A stretch of DNA of 34,067 bases. Origin: a virus. The notes below the pieces were generated by a model. That model made no database searches and was not told the DNA's origin. It saw only the letters and a program-made list of their open reading frames with translations. The stretch spans positions 1 through 34,067 of the IMG/VR virus record IMGVR_UViG_3300010339_000008; one strand, written 5' to 3'. Both the position numbers and the translations under genes were made by a program. Below, piece after piece: positions 2,419-33,743 of this stretch. Each line of letters opens with the position of its first letter. Within the stretch, counting starts at the first letter, position 1.

Positions 2419-5400
2419 TTACAAACTCGTCTGCACGACGAAGGTGACACTGGCGTAGAGCAAGCTGAAGATCGGCTTGAACGTGACCGTCACGTCAACT
2501 TCGGTCGGGTCTTGCGGGTTCACGACAACACTGAGGTTCTCGTACCCGCTGAGGATAACGTTGTCCACGAGCGACTTCAGGCGTGCGTTGCAAACCACCT
2601 GAATGTCCGTCACAAGGCTGTCCACCAGCTTGCGACCAATGAATTGCTGCAAGTCAAGGCGGAACTGCTGGGCCACGTAGTCGGTGATTGTCACCGAGGT
2701 CGGCTCGCTCGTCAGGTCGTTCGCCGGGTCGGTCGTCTTGTAGTGGCGAATCTGGAGCGCCCCGCTGTTGTTGAGCAACAGGGTCAAGCCGTTGGCTGCC
2801 ATGTTGTCCATCGTCGGGTCGTCGTAGGTGATGAGCAGGCGGCTGAACCCGACCAAGTTCTGGAGGGTAAGAGTCGTCGCCACGTCGTTCGACGGGTTGC
2901 AGTTCAAACCTGCCATGGCGGCTGCCATGAAGGTGCCGTCAACCGGGTACTCAACTGCTACGCCAGTCGTCAGGTTGGTGATGAGGATGCCCGCGGCTGC
3001 GTTGCCGATGGCGACCATACGGCTGTTCTTCAATGCAACAGCGTTTGCCGAAGCTTGAGCAGCGGTCGTGAATTGAGAGTAACCCACAAAGCCGATTGCT
3101 TCGCCCTTGTAGCGGGCTCCAGCTTGAGTGATAAGCTGGCGGCTCAGTGCTTGGTGCACCGTGGGGTCGTTGCTCAGGGGCACGACCACATTCACCTTAT
3201 GGTTGAGGCCCGGTATGTTCTTCGTGAGTTGCTGGAGGGCGGAGGTGTAGTCCGAGGAGGAGGCGTAGTTCGTGCCGGGCTGCACTGGGACTTGGATCGC
3301 GCCGAAGGTCTGCACGCCGTTCTGTGACATCAGGCTGATGCCGAGGGACAGGCGGTTGACCGTGCTGGGCTGCCCATACTGGGCGTAGGCGTCGGACGGG
3401 TTGGTGAAAATCTTCAGGGCGTAGTCTGCGGCGGTCTTGTTGGTCGTGAAGGTCACGTAGTAGAACGTGCCGACTGATGGGCCAGCGCCGGAGCCGCGGA
3501 ACGTGCTGACGACCACCGTGTCGCCTGCGGTCGAATTGTAGGTTGAAATGACCGTGGTGTGCAATCCGGGGATCGCAACAAGGTTGTTCGCCTGTGCCGG
3601 AAGCGTTCCGGGCGTGCCGCAGTAGCGGACAGCAGCATTAGCGCCTGCCTTGACGTTGTAGCGAAGAATGTCGCCATTCGTGAAAGCGTAAGCTGACGGA
3701 ATCGCCGGATTGCCATAGAGGCTCAAGGAAGTGCCAGACGCGTCAAGGATTGTGACGCGGAATCCTGTCACAACGTCCTCGTAGGTCTGGTTGATGTAGC
3801 CGATGTTGCTGCTCCCACTGCCCGAGCCAGCGTTTGGCCCAAGGCTGGAACTTACGGTGTAGCTGTGGGTCACGGGAGCCGTAATTGCGTCCGCACCGCT
3901 GCCCAAGCTCTGAGCCGCCGTTGTAATAACAGCCGTGCCGACAGTCACAGCCGAAGTTGTGATCTGACCGCCATTCTGTGTTTCAGCGGACGGGAAATGG
4001 GCTGCGATCTGGGTCAGGTTCTCCAACGTGCCAGTCCAATTGGCGTAGATGGTGACCAAATCGCCATTGACAGTCACGGGGACCGAGTTTGTTGATGCCG
4101 CATCAAGAGCGATCTTGACCTTGTTGCCGTTGATGCCCGGAATCATCGTTGAAAATGTTATGGAGCCAGTCGAACCAAATGTGGTTGTCAAGCTCGCTTG
4201 CACGGCGGCGGTAATTGTGGCTAGACCGTCATGGTTGAATGTTAGGGTGACATTCTCGTCCACCGCAGCGCCAGCTTGGGCTTGTGCGTCAAGCTGACCG
4301 AACGGATAGATTACACCGCTCGCTGCAAAACCTGCGCTAGCGGCGACTGTGCCGCTCGTGAAGGTCACGAGAGGAGCCACACGGTCAAGTTCGTCTTGGA
4401 TGATGTATGTGCCGTGCCCGCTGTAGCCGGGGGTCACGACCTGCACGGAGTACTGGTGCGTCTCCAAGGTGTTGCGGTAGTAGGATGCCCACACGCCCAC
4501 AGCCTCAAGTGGCTCGATGGTAGTGCTGCTCGATGGAGCCGGAGGGTTATACAGGGTGACTTTCTGGCCGCTCAGCCCCGCTACCTTCACTGGGCCAGCG
4601 AGGTATGCTTCGAGCGGATCGGAGCCTATATAGACATAAACAAGCAGGGGATTTTCCGTTGGACGACCGAGCCCGCTGCCATCCGTTGGTACATCTTCAA
4701 GAGTGAAGGCTGTGTTTCTGCTGTTGACTACACCGGAACACGGACGGAGGAATACCCACTCGTCTACGAGGGAAGTAGTCACATCGGTCTGGTCAAAGTT
4801 CGCAAGCTCGCCTGCGGCGGACACGCCAATGGCTTCACTGACTGAGTTGCCCCAGTTGATTGTGCCGTTGCCGTCCGCATCCACACCAAGGGCGAAGTCC
4901 ACATTCTGGATGTAGTCGCTGCGGTTCGGGCCAAGCCCGACGCTCACGACAGAGGCGATGTTTGACGCCGGAAGCAGGTCGAACGTGTTCTGCCAAGTGT
5001 TGGTGTAGTACGTGAAGGTCAAGGTCGAGCCGTATGCCACCGGAGATGCCAAGGTGACAAGACCTGCTTGCCCGTTGACTGCGGAAACGGGTACTGATAC
5101 CCCATTCACTTCGGCTGTGACAAGGGCGGGATTGGTCGTGATCACGCCGCCGTTGGTGCCGTCCACGATGTAGTTCCCGGCTTGCAAGTCCAAACCCGGC
5201 TGGTTGGCAACTGCTGCCGTCAAGCCAACTTTGAACACCGTGTTGCTGTTGTTGCCCAAACCGCCTGCGAAAGGCAAAGCGGCTGTTGCAACCAAGGGAG
5301 TCGTCTGGTCGCCTGAAGAAGACGCCACAATCAGGTATCCACCATCGAGAGTCGGAATACTCGTGGTGTTCACGAGGGTCGCGAGGTCCGCCAAGGTACG

Positions 5401-6087
5401 AGTGGCAGAAACTCCGGTGATGTTGATGACGATCGCGTCAGTGCCAGCGCCAGTCACAGCTTGCGCGGCGGGAACGGCCAGACCCGCTACCAACTGGAGC
5501 GTGACAAAGTTGCCAGCGGCTCCCGGATTCGTGAGACTCAGCACCACAGAGCCAGTCTTCGGCGGGCTTACCGACGTGTCACTGACAGTTAGGGTCGCAT
5601 ACTTCGGAATTTGGAAGGTATCGTCTTCGTTCGTGATGAGCGTATCGCCGCGCTTGAAGTTGTAGGTGATCTCAAGCGTCCAGCCAGAGGGGATGATTTC
5701 CTGCGTGGAGAAGACGCCTGTCGCGCCAACCAAGGAGATCACAGTGACAGGGAGCACGTTGCCGTCCGTATCGACGGCTTCGACCTGAACCTTGCTCGGA
5801 TCGTTGGTGACGACGCCCTTGCCCGTTCCATCCGTTACCGGGTAGTAGGTGGTCTTGAAGCTGCGGGTAAAGCCAGAGACCTGATTCGAGATATTCTCGT
5901 CCACCGCTTGGTCGTCCTGCACCGAGGAGGAGCCACGGAACAGTTCGACGTTCGGGAAGCTAAAGAACTGCTGTCCCTCACCGATGATTACCGGGATGCG
6001 GGAAGTACCGATCGCGGCCGAGGCCTGCGGATTGAAGATTTCGGTTGTATAGACGCCCGGAGGAGCGTAACTGGTAAACAGTGCCAT
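2419..6087 (-). CDS. contractile tail sheath protein, unusually large (1222 aa)
   Basis: N-terminus MALFTSYAPPGVYTTEIF carries the PGVY motif conserved at the start of phage and contractile-injection sheath proteins; GAGGGA RBS; tube-like gene directly downstream; long T/S/G/V-rich beta-type middle region suggests inserted surface domains. Confidence 0.6.
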   Translation of the reverse strand: MALFTSYAPPGVYTTEIFNPQASAAIGTSRIPVIIGEGQQFFSFPNVELFRGSSSVQDDQAVDENISNQVSGFTRSFKTTYYPVTDGTGKGVVTNDPSKVQVEAVDTDGNVLPVTVISLVGATGVFSTQEIIPSGWTLEITYNFKRGDTLITNEDDTFQIPKYATLTVSDTSVSPPKTGSVVLSLTNPGAAGNFVTLQLVAGLAVPAAQAVTGAGTDAIVINITGVSATRTLADLATLVNTTSIPTLDGGYLIVASSSGDQTTPLVATAALPFAGGLGNNSNTVFKVGLTAAVANQPGLDLQAGNYIVDGTNGGVITTNPALVTAEVNGVSVPVSAVNGQAGLVTLASPVAYGSTLTFTYYTNTWQNTFDLLPASNIASVVSVGLGPNRSDYIQNVDFALGVDADGNGTINWGNSVSEAIGVSAAGELANFDQTDVTTSLVDEWVFLRPCSGVVNSRNTAFTLEDVPTDGSGLGRPTENPLLVYVYIGSDPLEAYLAGPVKVAGLSGQKVTLYNPPAPSSSTTIEPLEAVGVWASYYRNTLETHQYSVQVVTPGYSGHGTYIIQDELDRVAPLVTFTSGTVAASAGFAASGVIYPFGQLDAQAQAGAAVDENVTLTFNHDGLATITAAVQASLTTTFGSTGSITFSTMIPGINGNKVKIALDAASTNSVPVTVNGDLVTIYANWTGTLENLTQIAAHFPSAETQNGGQITTSAVTVGTAVITTAAQSLGSGADAITAPVTHSYTVSSSLGPNAGSGSGSSNIGYINQTYEDVVTGFRVTILDASGTSLSLYGNPAIPSAYAFTNGDILRYNVKAGANAAVRYCGTPGTLPAQANNLVAIPGLHTTVISTYNSTAGDTVVVSTFRGSGAGPSVGTFYYVTFTTNKTAADYALKIFTNPSDAYAQYGQPSTVNRLSLGISLMSQNGVQTFGAIQVPVQPGTNYASSSDYTSALQQLTKNIPGLNHKVNVVVPLSNDPTVHQALSRQLITQAGARYKGEAIGFVGYSQFTTAAQASANAVALKNSRMVAIGNAAAGILITNLTTGVAVEYPVDGTFMAAAMAGLNCNPSNDVATTLTLQNLVGFSRLLITYDDPTMDNMAANGLTLLLNNSGALQIRHYKTTDPANDLTSEPTSVTITDYVAQQFRLDLQQFIGRKLVDSLVTDIQVVCNARLKSLVDNVILSGYENLSVVVNPQDPTEVDVTVTFKPIFSLLYASVTFVVQTSL

Positions 6088-9257: not shown

Positions 9258-10540
9258 GTCTGTATCTTCCCAAACGTGACTGTCCGCCCGATCTGTGGAT
9301 TGACATTTTCGAAGTCCTTGCCCGGCACGGTGCGCGGATCGTAAATAGGCTCTCCCCCGCCCCGCCCGTCAAGGGGATCGGGCCTCACGACGGGGTTGAA
9401 TATCGTCGGAAGCGAGGTGTTCAGCGGGATCAGGTAGCGGGTGTCGCCCGGCGAAAGCAAGCTCACCGTGAAGTCCTGCTGGAGTATGACGCCGCGGGGC
9501 ATCTTGTAAACCATATTGCTGATGACGTTCCGGTCGCCGTTGCGCCGGACGATGAGGTCGCCGTTCTGCACGATGGGCGTGCGGGTCAAAAAGCTCCGGC
9601 TGTCGCGGGTCGTCTTGATGCCGCCTTCGTTCAATTCCCTCATGATCGCCGAGTCAGGTGGCACGAACAGGAGGTCGTACGGGCCGATGTACCCGCCGAC
9701 GAAGCCCGTCTCGAAGCATGTACGGCACCCGGTCTTGCCTTGTGTCAAACCCGTAGTGCATCCGCAGGGCTCGCCGCGCCACTTGCGGAACAGCACGTAG
9801 GCTGGCTCGCCGACTTCCTCGAAGACCCACTGGTTGCGGTTGACCATCTCTTGGAATTCCCAGCTTATCTGATCAACTTCCTGTGTGTTCTTGATCACAC
9901 TGTCCCGAGCGCCGGGGGCGTGCGTCTCGCGCCCGTCCTTGCCGATGGGCACGACGGTGTAGTACGTGCGGTTCAATTCCGTGTAGATATCCACGAGGTT
10001 GCTGATCTTGTAGTAGGTGGCCTTGAACGCCGCGATGCCAGACCAGTCGCCCTGCCACACCACGCCGTTGCTTGCGAGCGGGAAAGCACTCACCGCTCCG
10101 CCTTCCGGAAGGGTGTTGTCCATCTTCAGCCAAATCGTACGGTCGAAGCCGTCCACCTTTGCCGGGCGGAAAGTCTGGGCGTCATCAAAGTTCCCCGAGA
10201 CGGAGGTGGTAACAAGCACATCCGCGGGATCGTTGCTAACCACGGGGCGTCCCTGCACCGCACGGGAGAACGGGGGATCGGGGATGCGGAATACCCAGCG
10301 CCCAAGCTCGCCGCGCTCGATCCAGTCCGAATCCTGTATGCCGTAGACGACCTCGACCAGCGAGGTCATGTCGCGGTAGAAGTGCCCGCCTACGGGGACG
10401 GCGCTGATCTTCGTCCAGTTCGCCGGGTAGTCGAACGCCCGGTAGATTGAGTAACCTTTGGCAGCTTCAGGATCGTCTAACCACCATAAATCCCGCGATC
10501 CGACGTACGAGCTATTCAAAATTTGAAGATTAGTGACCAT
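9254..10540 (-). CDS. hypothetical structural-module protein (428 aa)
   Basis: ATG at 10540 (MVTNLQILNSSYVGSR...) with AGGAAA RBS; the track's 42-codon N-terminal extension is basic junk and overlaps the upstream gene. Confidence 0.7.
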   Translation of the reverse strand: MVTNLQILNSSYVGSRDLWWLDDPEAAKGYSIYRAFDYPANWTKISAVPVGGHFYRDMTSLVEVVYGIQDSDWIERGELGRWVFRIPDPPFSRAVQGRPVVSNDPADVLVTTSVSGNFDDAQTFRPAKVDGFDRTIWLKMDNTLPEGGAVSAFPLASNGVVWQGDWSGIAAFKATYYKISNLVDIYTELNRTYYTVVPIGKDGRETHAPGARDSVIKNTQEVDQISWEFQEMVNRNQWVFEEVGEPAYVLFRKWRGEPCGCTTGLTQGKTGCRTCFETGFVGGYIGPYDLLFVPPDSAIMRELNEGGIKTTRDSRSFLTRTPIVQNGDLIVRRNGDRNVISNMVYKMPRGVILQQDFTVSLLSPGDTRYLIPLNTSLPTIFNPVVRPDPLDGRGGGEPIYDPRTVPGKDFENVNPQIGRTVTFGKIQT

Positions 10541-11264
10541 TCGATTTCCTGCGAGTTGCCCACGTCCCCACCATTGCCCGCCGTATTTTTTCCTTTGATG
10601 CGACTGTATGCAAAACGCCGGGCTTTCCGGCAACCCATCCCGCCCTAATTTTCTCTTCCGTTTCACGTTCTGGCACGAGCTTCATTCCCAACTGGGGATG
10701 ATGCATCCATCGTAGGCGCTTATGCTTGAGCGTGAAGGATATTTGTTGGCGTGTTTTTCTCGGCACAGGCACATCTTTATTCCAAGGCGGTATGCCGATC
10801 CTATCTATCCGTCCACGCACCCAGCCCCTATCCAAGTAAACGGGTATTTCAGATTCCCGAACCTTCTTCATTCCAAGTTCTGGGTGGCTAATCCATAATT
10901 GTCCAAGGTGTGATTGACGTAGTTTTTCTCGCGTCTCTACCGATGCACGGTTTCCCTTGTTTGGGGAAGATGCTGTTGGGCTTGAATTGTAACCGTTGCG
11001 GTAAGAGTCAAACAGATCGAGGTAGTGCTGCTCACGAACAAGCAGTTGATTCTCTGGGCATTCCTCCAACACAACCCATTTCCATACCGTCGCTCCATGC
11101 TTGTTCCATGAGCGTTGCAGTTTTATTGAATGATTGATTCCCCTGCGCAGTTGCTTTTTATGGGCGTGCCAGCGCTTAACCGCATCCTTCGTGCTTCCGA
11201 CATAAGACTTTCCTGTGACGGTGTTTTGGATGGCGTAAACGCAAGATATTTTTGGTTGGGACAT
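10530..11264 (-). CDS. GIY-YIG homing endonuclease
   Basis: ATG 11264 (MSQPKISCVYAIQNTVTGKSYVGSTKDAVKRWHAH...) carries the GIY-x10-YIG motif with conserved R and H; local DNA visibly AT-richer than surroundings; track ORF 10530..11702 over-extended upstream. Confidence 0.8.
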   Translation of the reverse strand: MSQPKISCVYAIQNTVTGKSYVGSTKDAVKRWHAHKKQLRRGINHSIKLQRSWNKHGATVWKWVVLEECPENQLLVREQHYLDLFDSYRNGYNSSPTASSPNKGNRASVETREKLRQSHLGQLWISHPELGMKKVRESEIPVYLDRGWVRGRIDRIGIPPWNKDVPVPRKTRQQISFTLKHKRLRWMHHPQLGMKLVPERETEEKIRAGWVAGKPGVLHTVASKEKIRRAMVGTWATRRKSNGH

Positions 11265-11394
11265 AGCTTCTCTATATAAATACCGCAAAATCAGGTTTTT
11301 GAGGACGGTTGTCAATATAAGACGTTGAATTTTAAGGAGTTGAGGACTAGCTAAAATACCCCCAACCGCTGTATACTGTGGGTGGGAGGAGAAA
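11265..11394. promoter_or_regulatory. AT-rich divergent intergenic region (likely promoters for 10530..11264 and 11395..11712)
   Basis: 130-nt AT-rich spacer between divergently oriented genes; TTGAAT ... TAAAAT-like elements; GGGAGGAG RBS before the plus-strand gene. Confidence 0.3.
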
Positions 11395-11712
11395 ATGACC
11401 GGAACCAAGGCAGCCCTAATCTCTCTAAGTTTCTTAGTAATCGGCACGGCCTTGACACTTTGGATTTTCCACGTAAGTCCCGAAAAAGCTGCCCGTGAAG
11501 ACGCTGCAATCCAAGCGGAACAAGCCCGAGGAATACGTTCCCCACAGATAGACCCCAAGAGACGGGAACGCGATGAACTGCAAAAAGCAATCAATGAAGC
11601 AAGAAAAGAACTCAATTGTCCGGGTTTCCTCGACGCTCCAATAGGTTTCAAGCCCTGCCCAGAGCGCGAATACTTGAACAAATTGCAAGACGAATTGGAC
11701 AATCTTAATTGA
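11395..11712 (+). CDS. small membrane-anchored protein (105 aa)
   Basis: GGGAGGAG RBS 5 nt before ATG; N-terminal hydrophobic helix (ALISLSFLVIGTALTLWIF) then charged coiled region. Confidence 0.6.
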   Translation: MTGTKAALISLSFLVIGTALTLWIFHVSPEKAAREDAAIQAEQARGIRSPQIDPKRRERDELQKAINEARKELNCPGFLDAPIGFKPCPEREYLNKLQDELDNLN

Positions 11713-14402: not shown

Positions 14403-15098
14403 CTAGTCAGCTAAATAACTGCAAAGAGGGCACTCTGGGTTCGTTTGTTTTCGGTTGACATGCCAACGCACATGCCGAGGTATGGGGCTCTTTCCGCCCA
14501 ATCGTCCAGCTTTTTGCTTGTTCTCCCTAGACCCGGCTTTACCGCCCAGCACATGGGCTTCGTGGGATAGACGTGCGGATGCTTCCTGTTTATGCGACTC
14601 CACCCATTTCCGGCAACCTTCAACTCGACTGGATTCGTCTTGAGTGGCGCGGGCGGCTTTGATTTTTTCTACGGTTTCAAGTGTTGTGGTATGTCCTTTC
14701 ATTTTGGCGCTAAAATTTTCCCGAATTTCGGGACGCTGCCACATACGACGAGAAGCAGCGGCGTTCTTTTTCTTGGCTTCCTCAGAATGTGGCCCGGTGA
14801 ACCCCTCTCCACCTCGGCAGATGTTGTAGCCGATATTGGGATGCCGAGTCTTGAGGACTTTGATGAGCAGCCTTTCGTGCTCGCAGATTTCCTCATTGGT
14901 TTGCCCCCGAAAGAGCGGGTAGATGTGGAAATGCCCACGACCGTATTTGCGGATGGCGGCATAGAGATGGGAACGTAGACTTATGTGCTTGTGTGCCTCA
15001 GAAAATTTCTGTTGAAGATATTGCACCAAATTAGAACGGGTAGTTTTTCCAACATAAATCTTCCAGTTCACATCGTTGACAATCAGATAGACGAACAT
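14403..15098 (-). CDS. GIY-YIG homing endonuclease
   Basis: MFVYLIVNDVNWKIYVGKTTRSNLVQYLQQK...H matches the GIY-YIG motif; basic K/R-rich C-terminal DNA-binding tail; lower GC than neighbours. Confidence 0.85.
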   Translation of the reverse strand: MFVYLIVNDVNWKIYVGKTTRSNLVQYLQQKFSEAHKHISLRSHLYAAIRKYGRGHFHIYPLFRGQTNEEICEHERLLIKVLKTRHPNIGYNICRGGEGFTGPHSEEAKKKNAAASRRMWQRPEIRENFSAKMKGHTTTLETVEKIKAARATQDESSRVEGCRKWVESHKQEASARLSHEAHVLGGKAGSRENKQKAGRLGGKSPIPRHVRWHVNRKQTNPECPLCSYLAD

Positions 15099-19888: not shown

Positions 19889-20179
19889 CTACGGATTCGG
19901 GTTAGATGGAGGAACCATCTTCACCAAAGACTTTGTCCAAAAAAAGAGTCCAACAAGGGAGATCAGAAGTATGGGGCCGCAAAGCTCCAACGCTGGCAAG
20001 TTGCGCATCTCAATCATCACCCATCCTGCCGTGACCGCCGAGCCGGAGAACATGAACATCGCCATGAGGCGTGCAGTGACGGGCATCTTTATCCTGTCAT
20101 AGACATACACGAAAAGAAAAGGCAAGAGCAACATCGTCCCGAACATGGAGTAGATTCTGATGATAGCGAAAGGATTCAT
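19889..20179 (-). CDS. small integral membrane protein (96 aa, ~3 TM)
   Basis: Three hydrophobic segments; AT-richer codons; start overlaps stop of nadV. Confidence 0.5.
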   Translation of the reverse strand: MNPFAIIRIYSMFGTMLLLPFLFVYVYDRIKMPVTARLMAMFMFSGSAVTAGWVMIEMRNLPALELCGPILLISLVGLFFWTKSLVKMVPPSNPNP

Positions 20180-21621
20180 GCGGTTGCGCCAGCAGCCTCC
20201 TCAACATAACGGTCGTAGGACTTCGCCGTTTCGCGGACCTCGTCCAACGTGAAGTCCTTCTTGAGTTCCCCGTCCTCGAACACGGTCTTGAGTTGGTTGC
20301 CGAGGGCGTCCTCCTCCGTGCTCTCGACGGTGTGGAAACGGTGCCCACCCATGTCGATCAGGTTGAAGCGCCCGCCCATCGACGCCTTGGTGATGTCAGT
20401 CACGGGGTTCTTGTAGACGTTGTGCCACACGCCAGAACGGTCGATTGCGCTGCACTTGATGGCAAAACGCATGGTGTCGCGGTTCTGCTGCTGAAGCAGC
20501 GCCCCGCCCATGCCGTAGCCCCAGTTGTCCATTGACCAGCCGTTGCGGATCAGGTGCGAGTTGATCCTCAGGATATTCTGGTAGTTCACGCCGTCGCCCT
20601 GTATGACGCGGACTTGTTTGGGCAGCACCTTCCAGCCCTTGGCGTTGGCCTCAAAGCCGAACTTCTCGGCGACGGAATTGAAGATGTCCTCGATCACGAC
20701 GCAGGGGTCGCCGGAGTCCGGGCGGAGCACCACTGTGCCATTGCGCCGGAGGATTTCCTCCCGAAGCTCCCCGCCGAAGATGTTCTCGACGGCGTTGTGG
20801 GTGTCATAAGAGTCAATGACGCACGCTACGAGGGGCGTAGGGCTCTTGCGAATCTGGTTGCGGTACGCTTCCGCCTCATGCTCCTTGCCCCACGAGCAGA
20901 CCGTGGAGTGCTCCATCGCAGCAATAGAATAGCCGGGCATCACTGTAGCGCCATAGAACTGCCGCAGCATCGGGATCGCCGCCAGCGTATCAGTGCCAAG
21001 GAAATTCACCAGATGCGCTGCGCCGCCGATAGCCGCCGTCTCTCGGGACGAGACCCCGCGGTAGCCGAAGTCGTGCAGCTTGAACGGCAGGAGGCTCGGA
21101 TCGCCAGTGCGGACAAGGTCTTTGCCGATGGCCTGCTTGATCTCAAAGGAGAGCGTGCCGACCGTGATGGGGTACCAGACTTGGAGGAGCAAAGTCTCCG
21201 CCCAGTTGGTGAGCCACGGGAACTCCTCGTCCGTGTTCTGCATGGTCATGAGGGCGTTGTGCGTCTGCACGACCGTGCCTTCCGGGACCGCCCTGATCCT
21301 AAGGGGCAGCTTGCCGTCATGCTTTTCAAGCAGCCGGGTCCAGCCCTTGTAGTTGAACACCTTGTCAGTTCCGAAGTGCGCGGCGGACAGGGCAACCGCC
21401 TCGTCAATATCGGCCTTGGTGAAGACCTTGCCCACGAAACAGGACTTGAGAATGTATTGAAGCCCGAAAAACATCGTGTGCTTCCAGAAGCCGCCGCGGG
21501 ACTGGAGGTACGAATACACAAACCGGGCGTCCGGAGGATACTGCCACCAGTGTGTGTGCTTGTAGCTGTCGGTTGTCTCGAAGATCGGGTTAAACCGCAG
21601 TGCTTGTGGCATACTTGACAA
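20176..21621 (-). CDS. nadV: nicotinamide phosphoribosyltransferase (Nampt/NadV)
   Basis: N-terminus ...TDSYKHTHWWQYPPDA and FKLHDFGYRGVSSRETAAIGGAAHLVNFLGTDT match the conserved Nampt signatures. Confidence 0.85.
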   Translation of the reverse strand: MSSMPQALRFNPIFETTDSYKHTHWWQYPPDARFVYSYLQSRGGFWKHTMFFGLQYILKSCFVGKVFTKADIDEAVALSAAHFGTDKVFNYKGWTRLLEKHDGKLPLRIRAVPEGTVVQTHNALMTMQNTDEEFPWLTNWAETLLLQVWYPITVGTLSFEIKQAIGKDLVRTGDPSLLPFKLHDFGYRGVSSRETAAIGGAAHLVNFLGTDTLAAIPMLRQFYGATVMPGYSIAAMEHSTVCSWGKEHEAEAYRNQIRKSPTPLVACVIDSYDTHNAVENIFGGELREEILRRNGTVVLRPDSGDPCVVIEDIFNSVAEKFGFEANAKGWKVLPKQVRVIQGDGVNYQNILRINSHLIRNGWSMDNWGYGMGGALLQQQNRDTMRFAIKCSAIDRSGVWHNVYKNPVTDITKASMGGRFNLIDMGGHRFHTVESTEEDALGNQLKTVFEDGELKKDFTLDEVRETAKSYDRYVEEAAGATA

Positions 21622-22507
21622 CCTTTCCTTTCAGGATTGCAAACAGAACCCGGTGCTCTGGCACGAAAGTGTTCTCGGTGAGTTGATCAAACTTGAACCA
21701 CCGAACTTGGGCGATGTCGTCCTTTGCCTTCGCTCCCTTAGTCCTCGCACAGCCCTTGAAGAAGGCGGTGGCGATCGCGTGGTCGGGGCTGGCGTTGTAG
21801 CGCCAGTCATCAATGTTGGAAGAACCCATGTATATAAGTGAGGTCAGGTCAAGACCCGTCTCTTCCATGGCTTCGGCGCGGGCAGCCGCCTCGTAGGTGC
21901 CGTGCTTCTTTTCGTAGTGGCCGCCAATGAAGCGCCACTCGGATTCGCCCGGTTTTTGCCCAAGAAGCAATTCGGATTCGTCGTCGCTGAATATGGCGAT
22001 GTCCACGCAGGGAAGAATTTCGGGCCAGCGGTGGTACATGGCATAGATCAGCCCGGCACGGAATTCCGGCGATTCGATGACTTTGTTGGAGAACTCGTTG
22101 CGGATGTCCGTGCCGCTGACTTTCTGGGTCTCGGGGGGCAAAGCAAGCTCCACGGGTTCGAGCTTCCCCGAGTAGTGCGGCACGAACGAATTGCGCCCGC
22201 CGTACAATGTGGCGGTGCCCGGACCAATGACGGAGGCGATGGTGGCGTCCAGTGTGCGGCTCCATTCCTCGTCGGTGCGAGTATCCTGCAACGGCAGCAC
22301 GATAAAGTCGGGGAATTTCGTTTGGATCATTGCGCGGCGGGTGGCGTAATCCAGCGGGTCGTTTTGGCTCAGCCCGCCGGGGTTAATCCCGATGAATACG
22401 ATCACGGCGTTGTGGCGGGCGCGAACTTGGCGGAACAGTTCCATGTGTCCATCATGCAGATCGTTCACCTGAAATCGTCCAACGACGACTCCGTATGATG
22501 GTTTCAT
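21590..22507 (-). CDS. natV: bifunctional NMN adenylyltransferase (NadM-like) / Nudix hydrolase
   Basis: N-terminal GRFQVNDLHDGH (cytidylyltransferase HxGH motif); C-terminal Nudix box GGHYEKKHGTYEAAARAEAMEETGL. Confidence 0.75.
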   Translation of the reverse strand: MKPSYGVVVGRFQVNDLHDGHMELFRQVRARHNAVIVFIGINPGGLSQNDPLDYATRRAMIQTKFPDFIVLPLQDTRTDEEWSRTLDATIASVIGPGTATLYGGRNSFVPHYSGKLEPVELALPPETQKVSGTDIRNEFSNKVIESPEFRAGLIYAMYHRWPEILPCVDIAIFSDDESELLLGQKPGESEWRFIGGHYEKKHGTYEAAARAEAMEETGLDLTSLIYMGSSNIDDWRYNASPDHAIATAFFKGCARTKGAKAKDDIAQVRWFKFDQLTENTFVPEHRVLFAILKGKVVKYATSTAV

Positions 22508-23439: not shown

Positions 23440-26286
23440 CTAGGCCCCAATCTCAAGCAAGAATCTTGACGGCATCAGCCTAGTCTCTTTGGCGGTGCCG
23501 TCTTGGCTGCGCTGTAATTGGCGCTCCGGCACGCACAAGACCAGCGAGTCCCGAGCCCGTGTACAGGCCACATAGAACAGCCTCCGCTCCTCCTCGATCT
23601 CCTCGTCGGAGCCGAGGGAGAACTTGTGAGGCAGGGAGCCCTCGTACAAGTTAGTGACGTAGACCCGCTTCCATTCAAGTCCCTTGGCCGAGTGGATCGT
23701 GGTGATGGTCACGGAACCTTGGTCGAGCACCTTGATCTTGGCGTCCAGTTCGTCCTTGGTAATCTTGCCCTCGTCATAGGCCTTCAGGACCGCCTCCCGC
23801 TCCTCGGCCTCGTCCCCCTTCGGGCGGTCGAGCGTGAGGTTGAAGATCAGGTCGTCGAGGCTCATGTTCCCTTCCTGCACCAGCATGATTATCATCATGT
23901 TGAACCGTTCGATGTTCTCCAGCTTGCTCTGCACCCTGCCGGGTTCCTTCTTGTATTTTTGCCGAACGTACTCCTTGTAGTTGCTCATCGCCACGACCTT
24001 CTCGACAGCGGCGATGGGGGAATCCTTGAACAAAGATACATGCTCAATGGTGTCGCAGAACATACCGAGCTTGCGTTGCTCGCGGGCGGCTTGGATCAGG
24101 TCCCCGTCGTACTTCTCGTTCGCCTGTTGGCGGATTTTCTCAAGGGTTGCCTCCCCTACGCCGCACTTCGGTGCGCCCGCCGCCCGGACGAGCGCCATGA
24201 AATCCTTGTGGTTGGCGGCCAAGCGCATGTACGCCATGATGTCCCTGATCTCCTCCGTGGTCAGCAAACCCCGCCCGCCGCGGACGACATAGGGAATCCG
24301 CCGCCGTATCAGTTCGCTCTCAAGGTCGCGGATTTGAATCCCCGCACGGACGAGAAGAGCATTGTCCTTGTACGCCAGACCGTTGCGGCTGTCCCGCTGT
24401 ATCTCTTGGGCTATGATTGCAGCGATGCTTTGCGGATATGCAGCAACTATTTTGCGGACCTCGCCATGCTCTCCGTTGATCCCCCGCCACGATTCCATTT
24501 GGATAGGAATAGTGGCAGTCATTTTTTTGCATATCAGATTAGCGAAGTCCACAATCTCCGGGATACTGCGGTGGTTGCGTGCGATCTTGTACAGGCTGGG
24601 AACGACTCCCCGCCATTCCTTGGAATAATTGATGAACAGTTCCGGTGAGGCCCCATTAAATCCATAGACCGATTGATTCGCATCCCCAACTACATACATG
24701 TTTAAGTTTTCCGGATGCAAAAGCCCGTTTATAAATTCCCATTGACAATTCTTCACCACGACACCGTTAGCGACATAAGTATGCCATGTTTGTACGTCCA
24801 GAGAATAAACCCACCCCCTATAGGGAACTCGTTTAACAGCATCAATACGCACCTGTGTATTGGGCTTCGTTGATGGCAGACTCATCAATCCCGGAATAAG
24901 ATTCACAGCACGAGTTTCAAAATATCTCTTCGATGGCAATTTGCGTTTGCCATCTGTCTCTCGTAAAAACAAGGGATACGCGGCCAAAAATTTGCAATCA
25001 ACTAAACACTCTTCCCCACGACCAGCCACATTTGCAAAAACTGTGGTAATATATTTTTGATGCTGTTCCCCGTTTGAGGGCTCGAATTGAGTTGTTGGAA
25101 TCCCGTACCTACAGGAAATGATTTGTTCCCATGCACGGGATTCTTGCTTTGTTTTACAAACACGGAGTATCCAACCCCTGTTCGCCTTTTCTTCTACAAA
25201 CCTCGCTCCTACACCGCCAAGCGACTTATGCTTTGTGTCTTGACAGTACCGTAGAGCACATTGTCCGACTCGATAGCCATACCCCTTACGCCACATCAGA
25301 TAAACAACGTAGCTATCCTCGCCGTCACCGTTAAGCATGGCGTACACCCTGTGGTCAGGCGTCATTCTTACGGTGTTTTCTCCACAAGTCACTTCAATCA
25401 AGTCGCCTTCATACCAACGCTTACCTACCTTGACTGGGGAGCCTTTAGCAGTGAGCTTGCCCCATCGTCGCCGCCATGCGACAACCATATCCCCGGCTTT
25501 CAATTGTTCGATGGGAACTTCGAAAGTCAAAGCCTTACGATTTTTATAGCCGATATATTTCCGAACCAACGTGCCCGGTGGATGACACTGATTCGTGTCC
25601 TGCACCTCATCCATCAAAACGTGGTCAAACTGCCTGTGCAAGACCGCCAGCCAACGCTCGTCCGTACGCATGCGGCGGACGCATAAGTGAATCATGTCGT
25701 CGAAATCTACGACCGAATTTTTTTGCTTCTCAATTTCGAACTCCTCCCAAAGCTCCAGTTCCGTCTCGTCCATGGCGTGGTACCCGGCGTGCATCTTTAG
25801 CGCCTGCTCGTGCACGTTGTCCGTGTACTCCTTGCGGAAGCCTACGCCCCGAGCCCGGTGGAACGAAATTTTGTCCAGCACTTGGAACATCATGGATGTG
25901 GTATCGTCTTCGAATTTATGGCGGTCAATGATTTTCTTCATCATCTGCTTCTGGTCATAGTCGTCGAGCGGAGTGACCTTGTCCTTCAGCCCGAATCCTT
26001 TAGGGTTCTTGCGAATGCCGCTGAGGGCGAGCGAGTGAATAGTGGAAATGCGAGGAACATTATGAGTCGCGTACTCTTCCAAATTCAAACGACGTGCCAT
26101 CTCGTTCGCCGCTTTATTCGTAAATGTGACTGCGCAGATGCGGTTGGGAGCCACACCGCTGTCCATGAGCCAGCGCACCCGCTCCGTGAGGACACGGGTC
26201 TTGCCCGACCCCGCCCCGGCTATGAGGCAGGCTGGTTTGTCCAGCGGATGCTCCACCGCCGCTGTCTGTTCTTCGTTTAACTGCAT
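23440..26286 (-). CDS. UvrD/Rep/PcrA-family DNA helicase interrupted by an intein (948 aa precursor, ~668 aa mature)
   Basis: Motif I CLIAGAGSGKTRVLTER and motif Ia; motif II DEVQDTNQ is followed directly by CHPPGTLV...VANGVVVKN and then CQWEFINGLL, which restores the UvrD motif II continuation. Confidence 0.85.
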   Translation of the reverse strand: MQLNEEQTAAVEHPLDKPACLIAGAGSGKTRVLTERVRWLMDSGVAPNRICAVTFTNKAANEMARRLNLEEYATHNVPRISTIHSLALSGIRKNPKGFGLKDKVTPLDDYDQKQMMKKIIDRHKFEDDTTSMMFQVLDKISFHRARGVGFRKEYTDNVHEQALKMHAGYHAMDETELELWEEFEIEKQKNSVVDFDDMIHLCVRRMRTDERWLAVLHRQFDHVLMDEVQDTNQCHPPGTLVRKYIGYKNRKALTFEVPIEQLKAGDMVVAWRRRWGKLTAKGSPVKVGKRWYEGDLIEVTCGENTVRMTPDHRVYAMLNGDGEDSYVVYLMWRKGYGYRVGQCALRYCQDTKHKSLGGVGARFVEEKANRGWILRVCKTKQESRAWEQIISCRYGIPTTQFEPSNGEQHQKYITTVFANVAGRGEECLVDCKFLAAYPLFLRETDGKRKLPSKRYFETRAVNLIPGLMSLPSTKPNTQVRIDAVKRVPYRGWVYSLDVQTWHTYVANGVVVKNCQWEFINGLLHPENLNMYVVGDANQSVYGFNGASPELFINYSKEWRGVVPSLYKIARNHRSIPEIVDFANLICKKMTATIPIQMESWRGINGEHGEVRKIVAAYPQSIAAIIAQEIQRDSRNGLAYKDNALLVRAGIQIRDLESELIRRRIPYVVRGGRGLLTTEEIRDIMAYMRLAANHKDFMALVRAAGAPKCGVGEATLEKIRQQANEKYDGDLIQAAREQRKLGMFCDTIEHVSLFKDSPIAAVEKVVAMSNYKEYVRQKYKKEPGRVQSKLENIERFNMMIIMLVQEGNMSLDDLIFNLTLDRPKGDEAEEREAVLKAYDEGKITKDELDAKIKVLDQGSVTITTIHSAKGLEWKRVYVTNLYEGSLPHKFSLGSDEEIEEERRLFYVACTRARDSLVLCVPERQLQRSQDGTAKETRLMPSRFLLEIGA
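24748..25587 (-). mobile_element. intein (~280 aa) inserted in helicase motif II
   Basis: Begins with Cys (block A CHPPGTLV), block B TPDHRVY, C-terminal WHTYVANGVVVKN followed by +1 Cys; DNA visibly AT-richer than flanking helicase sequence. Confidence 0.7.
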
Positions 26287-26721: not shown

Positions 26722-27161
26722 ACAGTCGGACGGCGGAGAAGAGCGGCTGGCGCATGGGAAATACGAATGGCTCCCTGCGGCGGCGTGTAGGGAATGGGCT
26801 TCTTGAACCGCTTCGGGTTCCGGATGATGACCACATGGGATTGTCCCAAGGTGCCGACCAATACCGGGTCTTTGTCGTAGAACTTCTGATACACTTCGTA
26901 ATGTTCAAATTCGAATTGCGGCACCACGTCTACGACCGTGGCGTAGCCGACGATGACACCCTTCGGGATGTCGGCCATCTTCATCCGCAATTTGTACTCG
27001 TATGCCCCCCAGTCGTCCATGCGGTTTGAGGACGTGTAAAGCAGGATCGGGCCGCGGTACTTCCAGTTGAACGACAGGGTTTTTACCCGCCGTTTGCCCC
27101 GGAGGACAAGCTCATTCCAAGGCGCTCGGTTCGCAAAAACTGGTACGGTTTCAAGTTTCAT
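26718..27161 (-). CDS. hypothetical protein (147 aa), possibly ASCH/PUA-like
   Basis: LRGKRRVKT near N-terminus weakly resembles the ASCH GxKxxExR motif. Confidence 0.5.
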   Translation of the reverse strand: MKLETVPVFANRAPWNELVLRGKRRVKTLSFNWKYRGPILLYTSSNRMDDWGAYEYKLRMKMADIPKGVIVGYATVVDVVPQFEFEHYEVYQKFYDKDPVLVGTLGQSHVVIIRNPKRFKKPIPYTPPQGAIRISHAPAALLRRPTV

Positions 27162-33668: not shown

Positions 33669-33743
33669 TGGTTGGCGGAGTGGGAGTCGAACCCACGGCC
33701 TGACGCTTATCGAGCGTCTGCTCTGCCACTGAGCTACCCGCCA
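33669..33743 (-). tRNA. tRNA-Ile(GAU)-like with U32-C33, CCA encoded
   Basis: 75 nt; acceptor UGGCGGG/UCCGCCA; D arm GCUC-AGUGGCA-GAGC; anticodon stem GACGC/GCGUC with loop UCGAUAA (C at position 33); T arm GUGGG-UUCGACU-CCCAC. Confidence 0.7.

Follow-up and report, generated by a model that had tools for sequence, protein, structure and literature searches.

A predicted class-1 intein beside motif II of a phage UvrD-like helicase, with a nested domain of GIY-YIG-like predicted fold

The window analysed here is the whole of a 34,067-nucleotide (nt) stretch of viral DNA (IMG/VR virus record IMGVR_UViG_3300010339_000008, positions 1 to 34,067), part of a 67-kb ENA contig, and its minus strand carries a helicase gene with a long in-frame insert that we read as an intein (Table 1). 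The gene is the sole long open reading frame (ORF) in its region, and two metagenome contigs encode the identical precursor protein. Pfam finds two helicase domains in the 948-residue product (UvrD-helicase, PF00580, 5e-54; UvrD_C, PF13361, 4e-51), and PHROG 1967 (DNA helicase) matches it at 1e-107. The TIGR models for pcrA, rep and uvrD match the helicase at 1e-84 to 1e-98, all of them under their equivalog cut-offs; scores of this kind indicate a phage paralogue that is none of PcrA, Rep and UvrD proper.

The insert is flanked by ...FDHVLMDEVQDTNQ^ and ^CQWEFINGLLHPENLNMYVVGDANQSVYGFNGA, with DEVQDTNQ^ and ^CQWEFINGLL at the junctions (a caret marks a junction throughout). Without the insert, the spliced sequence of 668 amino acids (aa) aligns end to end with 1pjr (PcrA) and with 1uaa and 2is1 (the Rep and UvrD structures), at values from 6e-68 (for 1pjr) to 3e-59. 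The junction itself is free of gaps: DEVQDTNQCQWEF of the spliced sequence stands against DEYQDTNRAQYTL of PcrA 1pjr, and the alignments with Rep and UvrD are likewise gap-free there. The original prediction for this locus, made from the letters of the DNA, had claimed that removal of the insert restores a contiguous helicase and had proposed an alignment of the extein to PcrA structures as a check; the alignment bears this out and puts the insertion point between the equivalents of PcrA R230 and A231. It had also claimed that the intein splits motif II; strictly taken, the intein lies at the C-terminal edge of the motif, three residues past the DExQD core and outside it.

But for its penultimate residue, the insert has the anatomy expected of a class-1 intein. 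Its coordinates and its length of 280 aa are exactly those first predicted, and the features named at that time (a Cys at the start, TPDH in block B, VANGVVVKN at the end and a Cys at +1) can all be read in the ORF translation. C1, T76 and H79 are invariant in an alignment of 28 Hint sequences of the family (alignment A3), and D264, H269, N280 and Cys+1 are present, with Lys at residue 279 where a canonical class-1 intein has His. The signals given by the window copy alone are weak, and one of them speaks against an intein: the copy scores 24–26 bits with PF14890 (Intein_splicing), for which the gathering threshold is 35.8. With TIGR01443 (intein_Cterm) it scores 15.9–18.6 bits (cut-off 15.6), and phmmer with the insert reaches the KlbA intein at E=0.01. 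Profile matches at the level of the family lift this doubt. A Hint-only profile, made from the two Hint lobes of 28 family members with the middle domain removed, matches 22 solved inteins or Hint domains (the best being KlbA, at 2.4e-10), including Ssp and Npu-type DnaB, PI-MtuI, Pho RadA and CDC21, PI-PkoII and Spl DnaX, and PF14890 is matched by 26 of the 28 members (best 1e-12); the comparison with Hint and intein models that had been suggested as a check thus comes out in favour of an intein. Chance resemblance can be dismissed, since 1,131 clusters match the insert at E<=1e-10 and 22 solved Hint structures match the profile. Judged by these sequence comparisons, the segment 24748-25587 is a genuine class-1 intein (Cys1/Asn/Cys+1) directly after helicase motif II. 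A class-3 intein was ruled out, as Cys1 is present and the pattern of blocks F and G is that of class 1. No second intein of the same family is present elsewhere in the window, and two antisense ORFs inside the intein (25261-25686 and 25476-25931, plus strand) have no Pfam match and were treated as spurious.

Table 1. Features of the helicase gene and of its predicted intein in the window (GC3, G+C content at third codon positions; CDS, coding sequence)
Feature	Position	Strand	Basis or remark
Helicase precursor CDS	23440..26286	(-)	948 aa, UvrD/PcrA/Rep-like, superfamily 1A (SF1A)
N-extein, aa 1-233	25588..26286	(-)	GC3 0.72; ends in motif II
Motif II DEVQDTNQ, end of N-extein	25588-25611	(-)	ORF translation
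Predicted intein, 280 aa, class-1 type	24748..25587	(-)	precursor aa 234-513, CHPPGTLV...VANGVVVKN
Cys1 codon	25585-25587	(-)	intein residue 1
Hint N-lobe, intein aa 1-89, blocks A and B	25321..25587	(-)	conserved C1, P3 and TxxH in family alignment
Block B T76-P-D-H79	intein residues 76-79	(-)	TxxH
Nested middle domain, intein aa 90-236, 147 aa	24880..25320	(-)	between blocks B and F
Predicted GIY-YIG-like beta-beta-alpha-beta-alpha core, first 76 aa of middle domain	25093-25320	(-)	invariant Y96, R106, R129, W139, E154 (intein numbering)
Hint C-lobe, intein aa 237-280, blocks F and G, VYSLDVQTWHTYVANGVVVKN	24748..24879	(-)	TIGR01443; inteins of the PDB align
Block F D264 and H269; block G Lys279-Asn280	Asn codon 24748-24750	(-)	motif positions
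C-extein, aa 514-948, and stop codon	23440..24747	(-)	ORF translation, PcrA alignment
+1 Cys codon	24745-24747	(-)	first C-extein residue
Intein-like low-GC3 tract, candidate co-conversion tract	24400..24747	(-)	first ~116 C-extein codons
Motif III VVGDANQSVYGFNGA, intact	24649-24693	(-)	within C-extein

The family to which the insert belongs is large. An exhaustive HMMER search with the full-length insert against 1.84 billion cluster representatives (50% identity clusters) gave 1,625 matches at E<=1e-3, 1,131 at E<=1e-10 and 107 at E<=1e-30; it was this search that found the family, as a word-indexed protein search with the intein returned nothing but one 100%-identical fragment. No family in PHROGs matches the intein or its middle domain, and megablast of the helicase gene against phage genomes gave no match. 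Against phage genomes tblastn found inserts in SPO1, CampHawk and RYC at 100% query coverage (28–29% identity, E 1e-17 to 1e-18), the annotated intein of PaulScherrer at 65% query coverage, inserts in other phage helicases that bear no annotation, and inserts in the ParB-methyltransferase genes of Streptococcus suis prophages. For example, Streptococcus phage Javan558 (L004 1625-3736) and about 15 other S. suis prophages carry a family intein of 285 aa that the deposited annotation misses, with the junction YQWQHEP^C...THN^CLYGWK, in genes annotated as 'adenine-specific methyltransferase' or 'ParB-like nuclease'.

Junctions were extracted from the best HMMER hits, which gave 175 full-length copies in 270 proteins. 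Among these best hits 113 copies lie in motif III (GDxxQ^C...xN^S/C-IYxxRG), 10 copies besides the window's own lie at its site after motif II (DExQDxx^C...[KR]N^CQW), eight at a site in motif V/VI (TIH^...^SxKGxE) and four before VDFDD; the remaining sites include YQWQHEP^ in methyltransferases and at least half a dozen further positions, and several helicases hold two or three copies of the family. By these junction sequences the family occupies at least 10 sites in UvrD-like helicases, in addition to DNA methyltransferases. The group of orthologues to which the window's helicase belongs is an intein hot spot in its own right, in which no fewer than six sites are occupied: inteins of another, LAGLIDADG type (PF05203, PF05204 or PF14528) interrupt the P-loop at GSGK^T in orthologues such as P0239, P0248 and P0251, and inteins of the family are found at several other positions.

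The inteins of Bacillus phage SPO1 (gp34.33), its homologue in CampHawk, and those of Escherichia phage PaulScherrer (Bas60) and Vibrio phage RYC are of the same family as the window's, with about 29% identity along all 280 aa (for PaulScherrer, along 65% of the query). They share with it a CxPxGT start, TPxH in block B and the ending VYSLDVE..H.Y.A.G...N, as well as the middle-domain pattern VYLM..G(F/Y)RVG...R..EKA..W(I/V)L...E...YGIP, and their hosts too are phage UvrD-like helicases. The insertion sites, however, are different: the inteins of SPO1, CampHawk and PaulScherrer are in motif III (GDxxQ^S/C-IYxFRG) and that of RYC three residues further, whereas the window's intein lies after motif II and leaves motif III intact, so that it is homologous to the SPO1-type inteins but is not their allele. 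SPO1-type inteins end in His-Asn, the window's in Lys-Asn. It is thus a new site variant of the SPO1-type family, after motif II and with Lys/Arg-Asn at the end. The records of SPO1, CampHawk and PaulScherrer say simply 'intein' and the insert of RYC is unannotated; no statement on the endonuclease type of the SPO1-type inteins was found in the records or in the searchable literature.

An intein in an ATPase motif of a helicase is, as such, already known and ordinary. Novikova et al. 2016 (PMC4760082) give 16 UvrD inteins in bacteria, which have the same host family (COG0210) and the same tendency toward P-loop NTPase motifs. Canonical class-1 inteins that hold a LAGLIDADG or HNH homing endonuclease (for example PI-SceI, PI-PkoII, PI-MtuI/RecA and Ssp DnaB) resemble the window's in that the Hint domain is split between blocks B and F, in having Cys1, TxxH, a terminal Asn and a +1 nucleophile, and in interrupting a catalytic motif of an ATPase for replication or repair, sporadically among orthologues. 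The window's intein differs from them in three respects: its nested domain has no LAGLIDADG or HNH match, the predicted fold of that domain is GIY-YIG-like, and there is no penultimate His.

Most inteins have His at the penultimate position. In this family it is found in a minority, about 35% of the 126 complete inteins (His 44, Leu 31, Gly 20, Cys 12, Lys 8, Ala 4, Met 3, Arg 2, Asn 1 and Gln 1), and the residue follows the insertion site: the other 10 inteins at the motif-II site have Lys (eight) or Arg (two), all eight at the TIH site have His, and those in motif III are mixed. Because 65% of the members are without it, the penultimate His appears from this sequence census to be dispensable in the family, and Lys279 to be a trait of its lineage. 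Chen et al. (2000) are reported to have shown by experiment that other inteins splice without a penultimate His. The replacement of His by Lys, singled out in the original prediction as noteworthy, is therefore real but not exceptional (44 of 126 have His, and 10 of 10 at the motif-II site have Lys or Arg).

Relatives of the helicase provide the empty site. A search with the extein gave 6,214 helicase homologues at E<=1e-30, and the closest orthologues (P0152, P0155, P0156 and P0157; 664–670 aa, 75–79% identity along the full length) lack the insert; at the insertion site their sequence is DEAQDTNPVQWEF. The intein-less site is GATGAAGCGCAAGATACTAATCCCGTGCAGTGGGAATTC (e.g. the intein-free allele at L006 6001-8013 reads ...GATACTAATCCC^GTGCAGTGG...). 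Compared with the intein-free alleles the window has Q for P at -1 and C for V at +1, the latter supplying the nucleophile that a splicing intein needs. P0155 is encoded by this intein-free locus, on a phage-like JGI contig of 453,890 bp that shares with the window the gene order MVP-like, PP2C, helicase, Nudix, NAMPT, and the source virus is most likely a jumbo phage.

The histories of intein and extein, as read from sequence identities, are discordant. The intein is 86% identical to that of P0002, 84% to that of P0219 and 76% to that of P0254, whose exteins are merely ~40–70% identical to the window's, whereas P0154, with an extein 83% identical to the window's, holds a 36%-identical family intein in motif III. 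Base composition gives a similar picture. The insert had been described as AT-richer than its flanks, and so it is: its GC content is 47.1%, compared with 54.8% for the N-extein, 56.1% for the C-extein and 56.2% for the whole window, and its GC3 is 0.446 (0.72 and 0.74 in the N- and C-exteins). A scan along the gene, which had been proposed as a check, confirms an abrupt fall of GC3 at the N junction, but the low values do not stop where the intein ends and reach some 350 nt beyond it, on the C-extein side. GC3 is 0.41 over the first 32 codons of the C-extein (binomial p 5e-6 in comparison with the distal extein), where the intein-free orthologue has 0.71, and in a two-state change-point analysis the tract ends after 116 codons, at about 24400 of the window (log-likelihood ratio 15.4); on the N-extein side the change-point analysis found no comparable low-GC3 tract. 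The intein keeps a GC3 of 0.40–0.45 in three different hosts, the exteins of which have 0.54–0.74. The tract suggests co-conversion with the intein during homing. Composition had been taken as a sign of recent mobile acquisition, of which the mobile and foreign part holds; with low GC3 in two other hosts as well and a tract of about 350 nt in the flank, it marks a roaming element with a co-converted flank and not simply a recent arrival.

For the nested domain between the two Hint lobes we aligned 52 sequences over intein residues 90-236 (alignment A2; Y7 in domain numbering is Y96 of the intein). Y7, R17, R40, W50, E65, L106 and N140 are invariant, and M9, G15, G19, E44, A46, L52 and P75 nearly so; the window copy keeps all conserved positions. 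The core of the domain (its first 76 aa) is the most conserved part of the intein: against P0219, nonsynonymous divergence (dN) is 0.058 in the core, compared with 0.146 in the Hint N-lobe, 0.111 in the rest of the middle domain and 0.114 in the Hint C-lobe, and against P0254 the values are 0.077, 0.225, 0.236 and 0.285, respectively (synonymous divergence, dS, is saturated at ~1.6 or undefined, which makes dN/dS rough and takes some weight from the argument, and the contrast in dN between regions was used alone). No LAGLIDADG or HNH match was found by Pfam in the window's intein or in the 52 members. A single-protein scan of IMG/VR gave three weak loci.

AlphaFold2 (AF2), given the alignment of 52 sequences, models the middle domain with a predicted local distance difference test score (pLDDT) of 88.8 and a predicted TM-score (pTM) of 0.84 (single-sequence AF2 of the whole intein has a pLDDT of 31, and the fold is read from the middle-domain model). 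The model has three strands (3-11, 15-23 and 48-55) and four helices (37-43, 58-72 and two more), which make a three-stranded sheet with helices in the beta-beta-alpha-beta-alpha core topology of GIY-YIG nucleases. In a structure search with this model nine of the 11 top matches are GIY-YIG proteins: At-HIGLE and SLX1 (5.1, 5.1 and 4.9), the restriction enzyme PD-T4-3 (4.7), the UvrC N-terminal domain (4.4) and the I-TevI catalytic domain (4.4), and with lower scores EF2693 (3.7), T4 EndoII (3.6) and Eco29kI (3.4). Foldseek against predicted viral structures (BFVD) finds the same domain best, in a viral methyltransferase and in helicases (E 2e-8 to 3e-7), and ranks 4–50 are enriched in GIY-YIG, Seg and I-TevI-like homing endonucleases, for example a NUMOD3 protein (probability 0.89), a 'homing endonuclease' (0.80) and SegD, SegE-like and I-TevI-like proteins, at E 0.03–0.8.

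The invariant residues fall on the catalytic elements of GIY-YIG enzymes: a Tyr on beta1 (GIY), R-V-G on beta2 (YIG), an Arg on the first helix and a Glu on the helix after beta3. 'VVY' would correspond to GIY and 'FRVG' to YIG with Arg replacing Tyr, R129 lies in the arginine helix, and E154 would be the equivalent of the metal ligand. A basic residue in place of the YIG Tyr has a precedent in Hpy188I (PMC3045582), an active GIY-YIG enzyme in which Lys73 replaces this Tyr and contacts the scissile phosphate; there the GIY Tyr acts as general base, with Arg84 to position the water and Glu149 to bind the metal. In its predicted core the middle domain has the topology of I-TevI, UvrC, SLX1, Hpy188I and Eco29kI and a like placement of Tyr, x-V-G, Arg and Glu (with Arg where Hpy188I has Lys73), but it differs from them in showing no detectable sequence similarity and in a longer loop between beta2 and the Arg helix. 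It also differs in that it is embedded in frame in a Hint domain, with no fusion to NUMOD or other DNA-binding modules.

A GIY-YIG fold for the middle domain seems to us somewhat more probable than not, and it is quite likely that the domain, of whatever fold, is the intein's own endonuclease. The original prediction had supposed that the middle region may be a degenerate endonuclease; the lowest dN of the element, the invariant Y/R/R/W/E and a confident GIY-YIG-like predicted fold speak against degeneration. GIY-YIG enzymes were stated in PMC2677866 to be not known inside inteins, and a 2025 survey of actinophage inteins (bioRxiv 10.1101/2025.01.02.630785) has LAGLIDADG, HNH, Vsr-like and EndoVII-like endonucleases but no in-frame GIY-YIG. 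We found no in-frame GIY-YIG intein in the full-text open-access literature, though absence there is not proof of novelty.

Putting these observations together, we consider it reasonably likely that the element is a splicing class-1 intein at the motif-II site, with a nested, divergent GIY-YIG homing nuclease, in a UvrD/PcrA-like helicase of a large phage. The precursor would be translated with motifs II and III 280 aa apart. The Hint domain would then excise itself by an N-S acyl shift at Cys1 and trans-thioesterification to Cys+1, followed by cyclisation of Asn280 and an S-N shift, which would leave ...DTNQ-CQWEF... and restore an active ATPase; Lys279 would be the basic residue in place of the usual penultimate His. 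The 147-aa nested domain would be the homing endonuclease, of a highly divergent GIY-YIG fold. In a mixed infection the released intein, or the precursor, would cut the intein-less helicase alleles of co-infecting relatives (at DEAQDTNPVQWEF), and repair from the intein-bearing allele would copy the intein together with ~350 nt of downstream extein. Such a co-copied flank would account for the changes from P to Q and from V to C at the junctions and for the asymmetric low-GC3 tract. GIY-YIG homing enzymes such as I-TevI are tolerant in their recognition and cleave away from the insertion site, and tolerant, distant cutting of this kind would fit both the asymmetric tract and the many target sites of the family.

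A number of results weigh against this reading. Splicing and DNA cleavage are predictions that we infer from the sequence; what is observed is how the insert is built, its homology, the existence of empty sites and the discordance between intein and extein phylogenies. The GIY-YIG matches in BFVD are in the grey zone (the E-values of 0.03–0.8 given above), and Foldseek of the middle domain against the PDB gave nothing at E<1. At the sequence level, a Pfam scan of the 52 middle-domain members found no recurring family and no GIY-YIG or T5orf172, the middle-domain profile matched no chain among PDB sequences, and hhalign gave a probability of 0.1% against an alignment of 13 I-TevI-like sequences and no significant match with the I-TevI-like ORF of the window itself. 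Four positions past the helix Arg the domain has Glu, where canonical GIY-YIG enzymes have His or Tyr. As to the tract in the C-extein, the equivalent region is also rather low in GC3 in other alleles (0.60–0.62), and part of the tract may be a regional effect.

It might also be that the intein is genuine and splices but that its middle domain is no nuclease, being DNA-binding, structural or regulatory instead, and that the element spreads passively or by 'collaborative homing' with the help of free-standing endonucleases nearby. The failure to link the domain to any nuclease family by sequence, or to any PDB structure by Foldseek, would be understandable in that case, and endonuclease genes are indeed close by: the phage has two free-standing GIY-YIG genes (~10530-11264 and 14403-15098), and in another contig (L020) a GIY-YIG/NUMOD3 gene lies directly downstream of the intein-bearing helicase. 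We think this unlikely, as the domain sits where inteins usually hold an endonuclease, is the most constrained part of the element, has its invariant Tyr, Arg, Arg and Glu on the catalytic secondary-structure elements of GIY-YIG enzymes, and draws GIY-YIG nucleases to the top of two independent structure searches; moreover, a spread to at least 10 sites and to unrelated host genes, with the domain kept, would be difficult to account for if the element had no nuclease itself.

Still less likely, and in our view improbable, is a domesticated or inactive Hint-derived insert that does not splice, in a helicase that works with the insert in place or that is a pseudogene-like dead allele. Lys in place of the penultimate His and a score under the gathering threshold of Intein_splicing could be signs of decay, but 65% of the family is without that His, and C1, T76, H79, D264, H269, N280 and C+1 are all conserved. 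An unspliced insert of 280 aa would part motif II from motif III in the ATPase core of a protein whose extein is otherwise intact and clearly conserved, and the change from V to C at +1, relative to the intein-free alleles, is what splicing requires. The sequence does come from a metagenome assembly (ERZ27315278, k141 contig) and its composition changes sharply at the N junction, as it would if an assembler had joined AT-rich foreign DNA into a helicase gene. Such a chimera is barely conceivable here: the insert is exactly in frame, runs for 840 nt without a stop and ends precisely on intein boundary residues, the identical protein is found on two contigs, and a homologous insert interrupts at least 10 other proteins in the databases at the same codon. 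A splicing intein with a nuclease of its own remains the reading that we prefer.

Other genes of the window are worth recording. A free-standing gene for an I-TevI-like GIY-YIG homing endonuclease lies at 10530-11264 (minus strand), within the ORF 10530-11702 (Pfam GIY-YIG, 1.6e-10); its GIY-YIG domain, MSQPKISCVYAIQN...GYNSSP, shares 49% identity with the catalytic domain of I-TevI from T4-like phages and is followed by ~150 further residues on the C-terminal side. A second free-standing GIY-YIG ORF (14403-15098, minus strand, 231 aa) matches Pfam at 1.4e-5 (25.7 bits, above the cut-off), and with the intein the window thus has at least three homing-type elements. In the related locus L020 (contig ERZ27313165 k141_1028681) the free-standing GIY-YIG/NUMOD3 gene is at 3775-4578 on the minus strand, opposite to and immediately downstream of the helicase that carries an intein at the same site (P0254).

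Genes around the helicase are partly those kept in related contigs. An 849-aa protein with major vault protein (MVP) domains (28750-31299, minus strand; MVP_shoulder 2e-24, Vault_3 4e-10), unusual in a phage, has its counterpart at the same position in the syntenic 454-kb contig (L006 1363-3954), and a PP2C-type Ser/Thr phosphatase of 254 aa (27151-27915, minus strand), whose gene is the second one upstream of the helicase, is conserved there too. Beside the helicase is a pair of genes for NAD (nicotinamide adenine dinucleotide) salvage (20176-22507, minus strand), conserved in the related contig: one encodes a nicotinamide phosphoribosyltransferase of 481 aa (NAMPT_N and NAPRTase), the other a protein of 305 aa in which a Nudix domain is combined with an adenylyltransferase-like region at the N-terminus. 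Seven transfer RNA (tRNA) genes are clustered at 32869-33743 (minus strand; two Gln-TTG, Thr-TGT, Thr-CGT, Thr-GGT and two Ile-GAT), and a lone tRNA-Leu(CAA) is at 2279-2370 on the opposite, plus strand; the first tRNA-Gln and the tRNA-Leu, of 91 and 92 nt, are longer than is usual and could hold an intron or be over-extended calls. A 1,222-aa ORF (2419-6087, minus strand) weakly matches, with its C-terminus, the C-terminal domain of phage tail sheath proteins (E 8e-4, under the cut-off); a sheath protein of this size would be very long, which would fit a jumbo myovirus.

The inteins described here form one of the largest intein families visible in metagenomes, although standard intein models barely recognise them and their central domain has no family assignment; the conserved nested domain (probably GIY-YIG-like), the size of the family and the promiscuity of its sites make it worth following. 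Whether it is to be seen as an abundant and essentially uncharacterised phage intein family with a cryptic GIY-YIG-derived nuclease, for which there is no Pfam model and the combination is unreported in the accessible literature, with the tolerance of the nuclease explaining at least 10 sites and the spread to methyltransferases, and with Lys/Arg fixed in the motif-II lineage, is in our judgement evenly balanced. For annotation, phage 'UvrD helicases' of 900–1,200 aa are often precursors holding one to three inteins. The asymmetric co-conversion tract leads to a testable prediction of where the cut would lie relative to the insertion site. If the GIY-YIG nuclease works, a further endonuclease class would be added to the short list of those inside inteins. 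The family would then also offer compact inteins of 280 aa that splice without a penultimate His, useful for protein engineering, and a natural system for the change of intein target sites, with many sites in one protein family.

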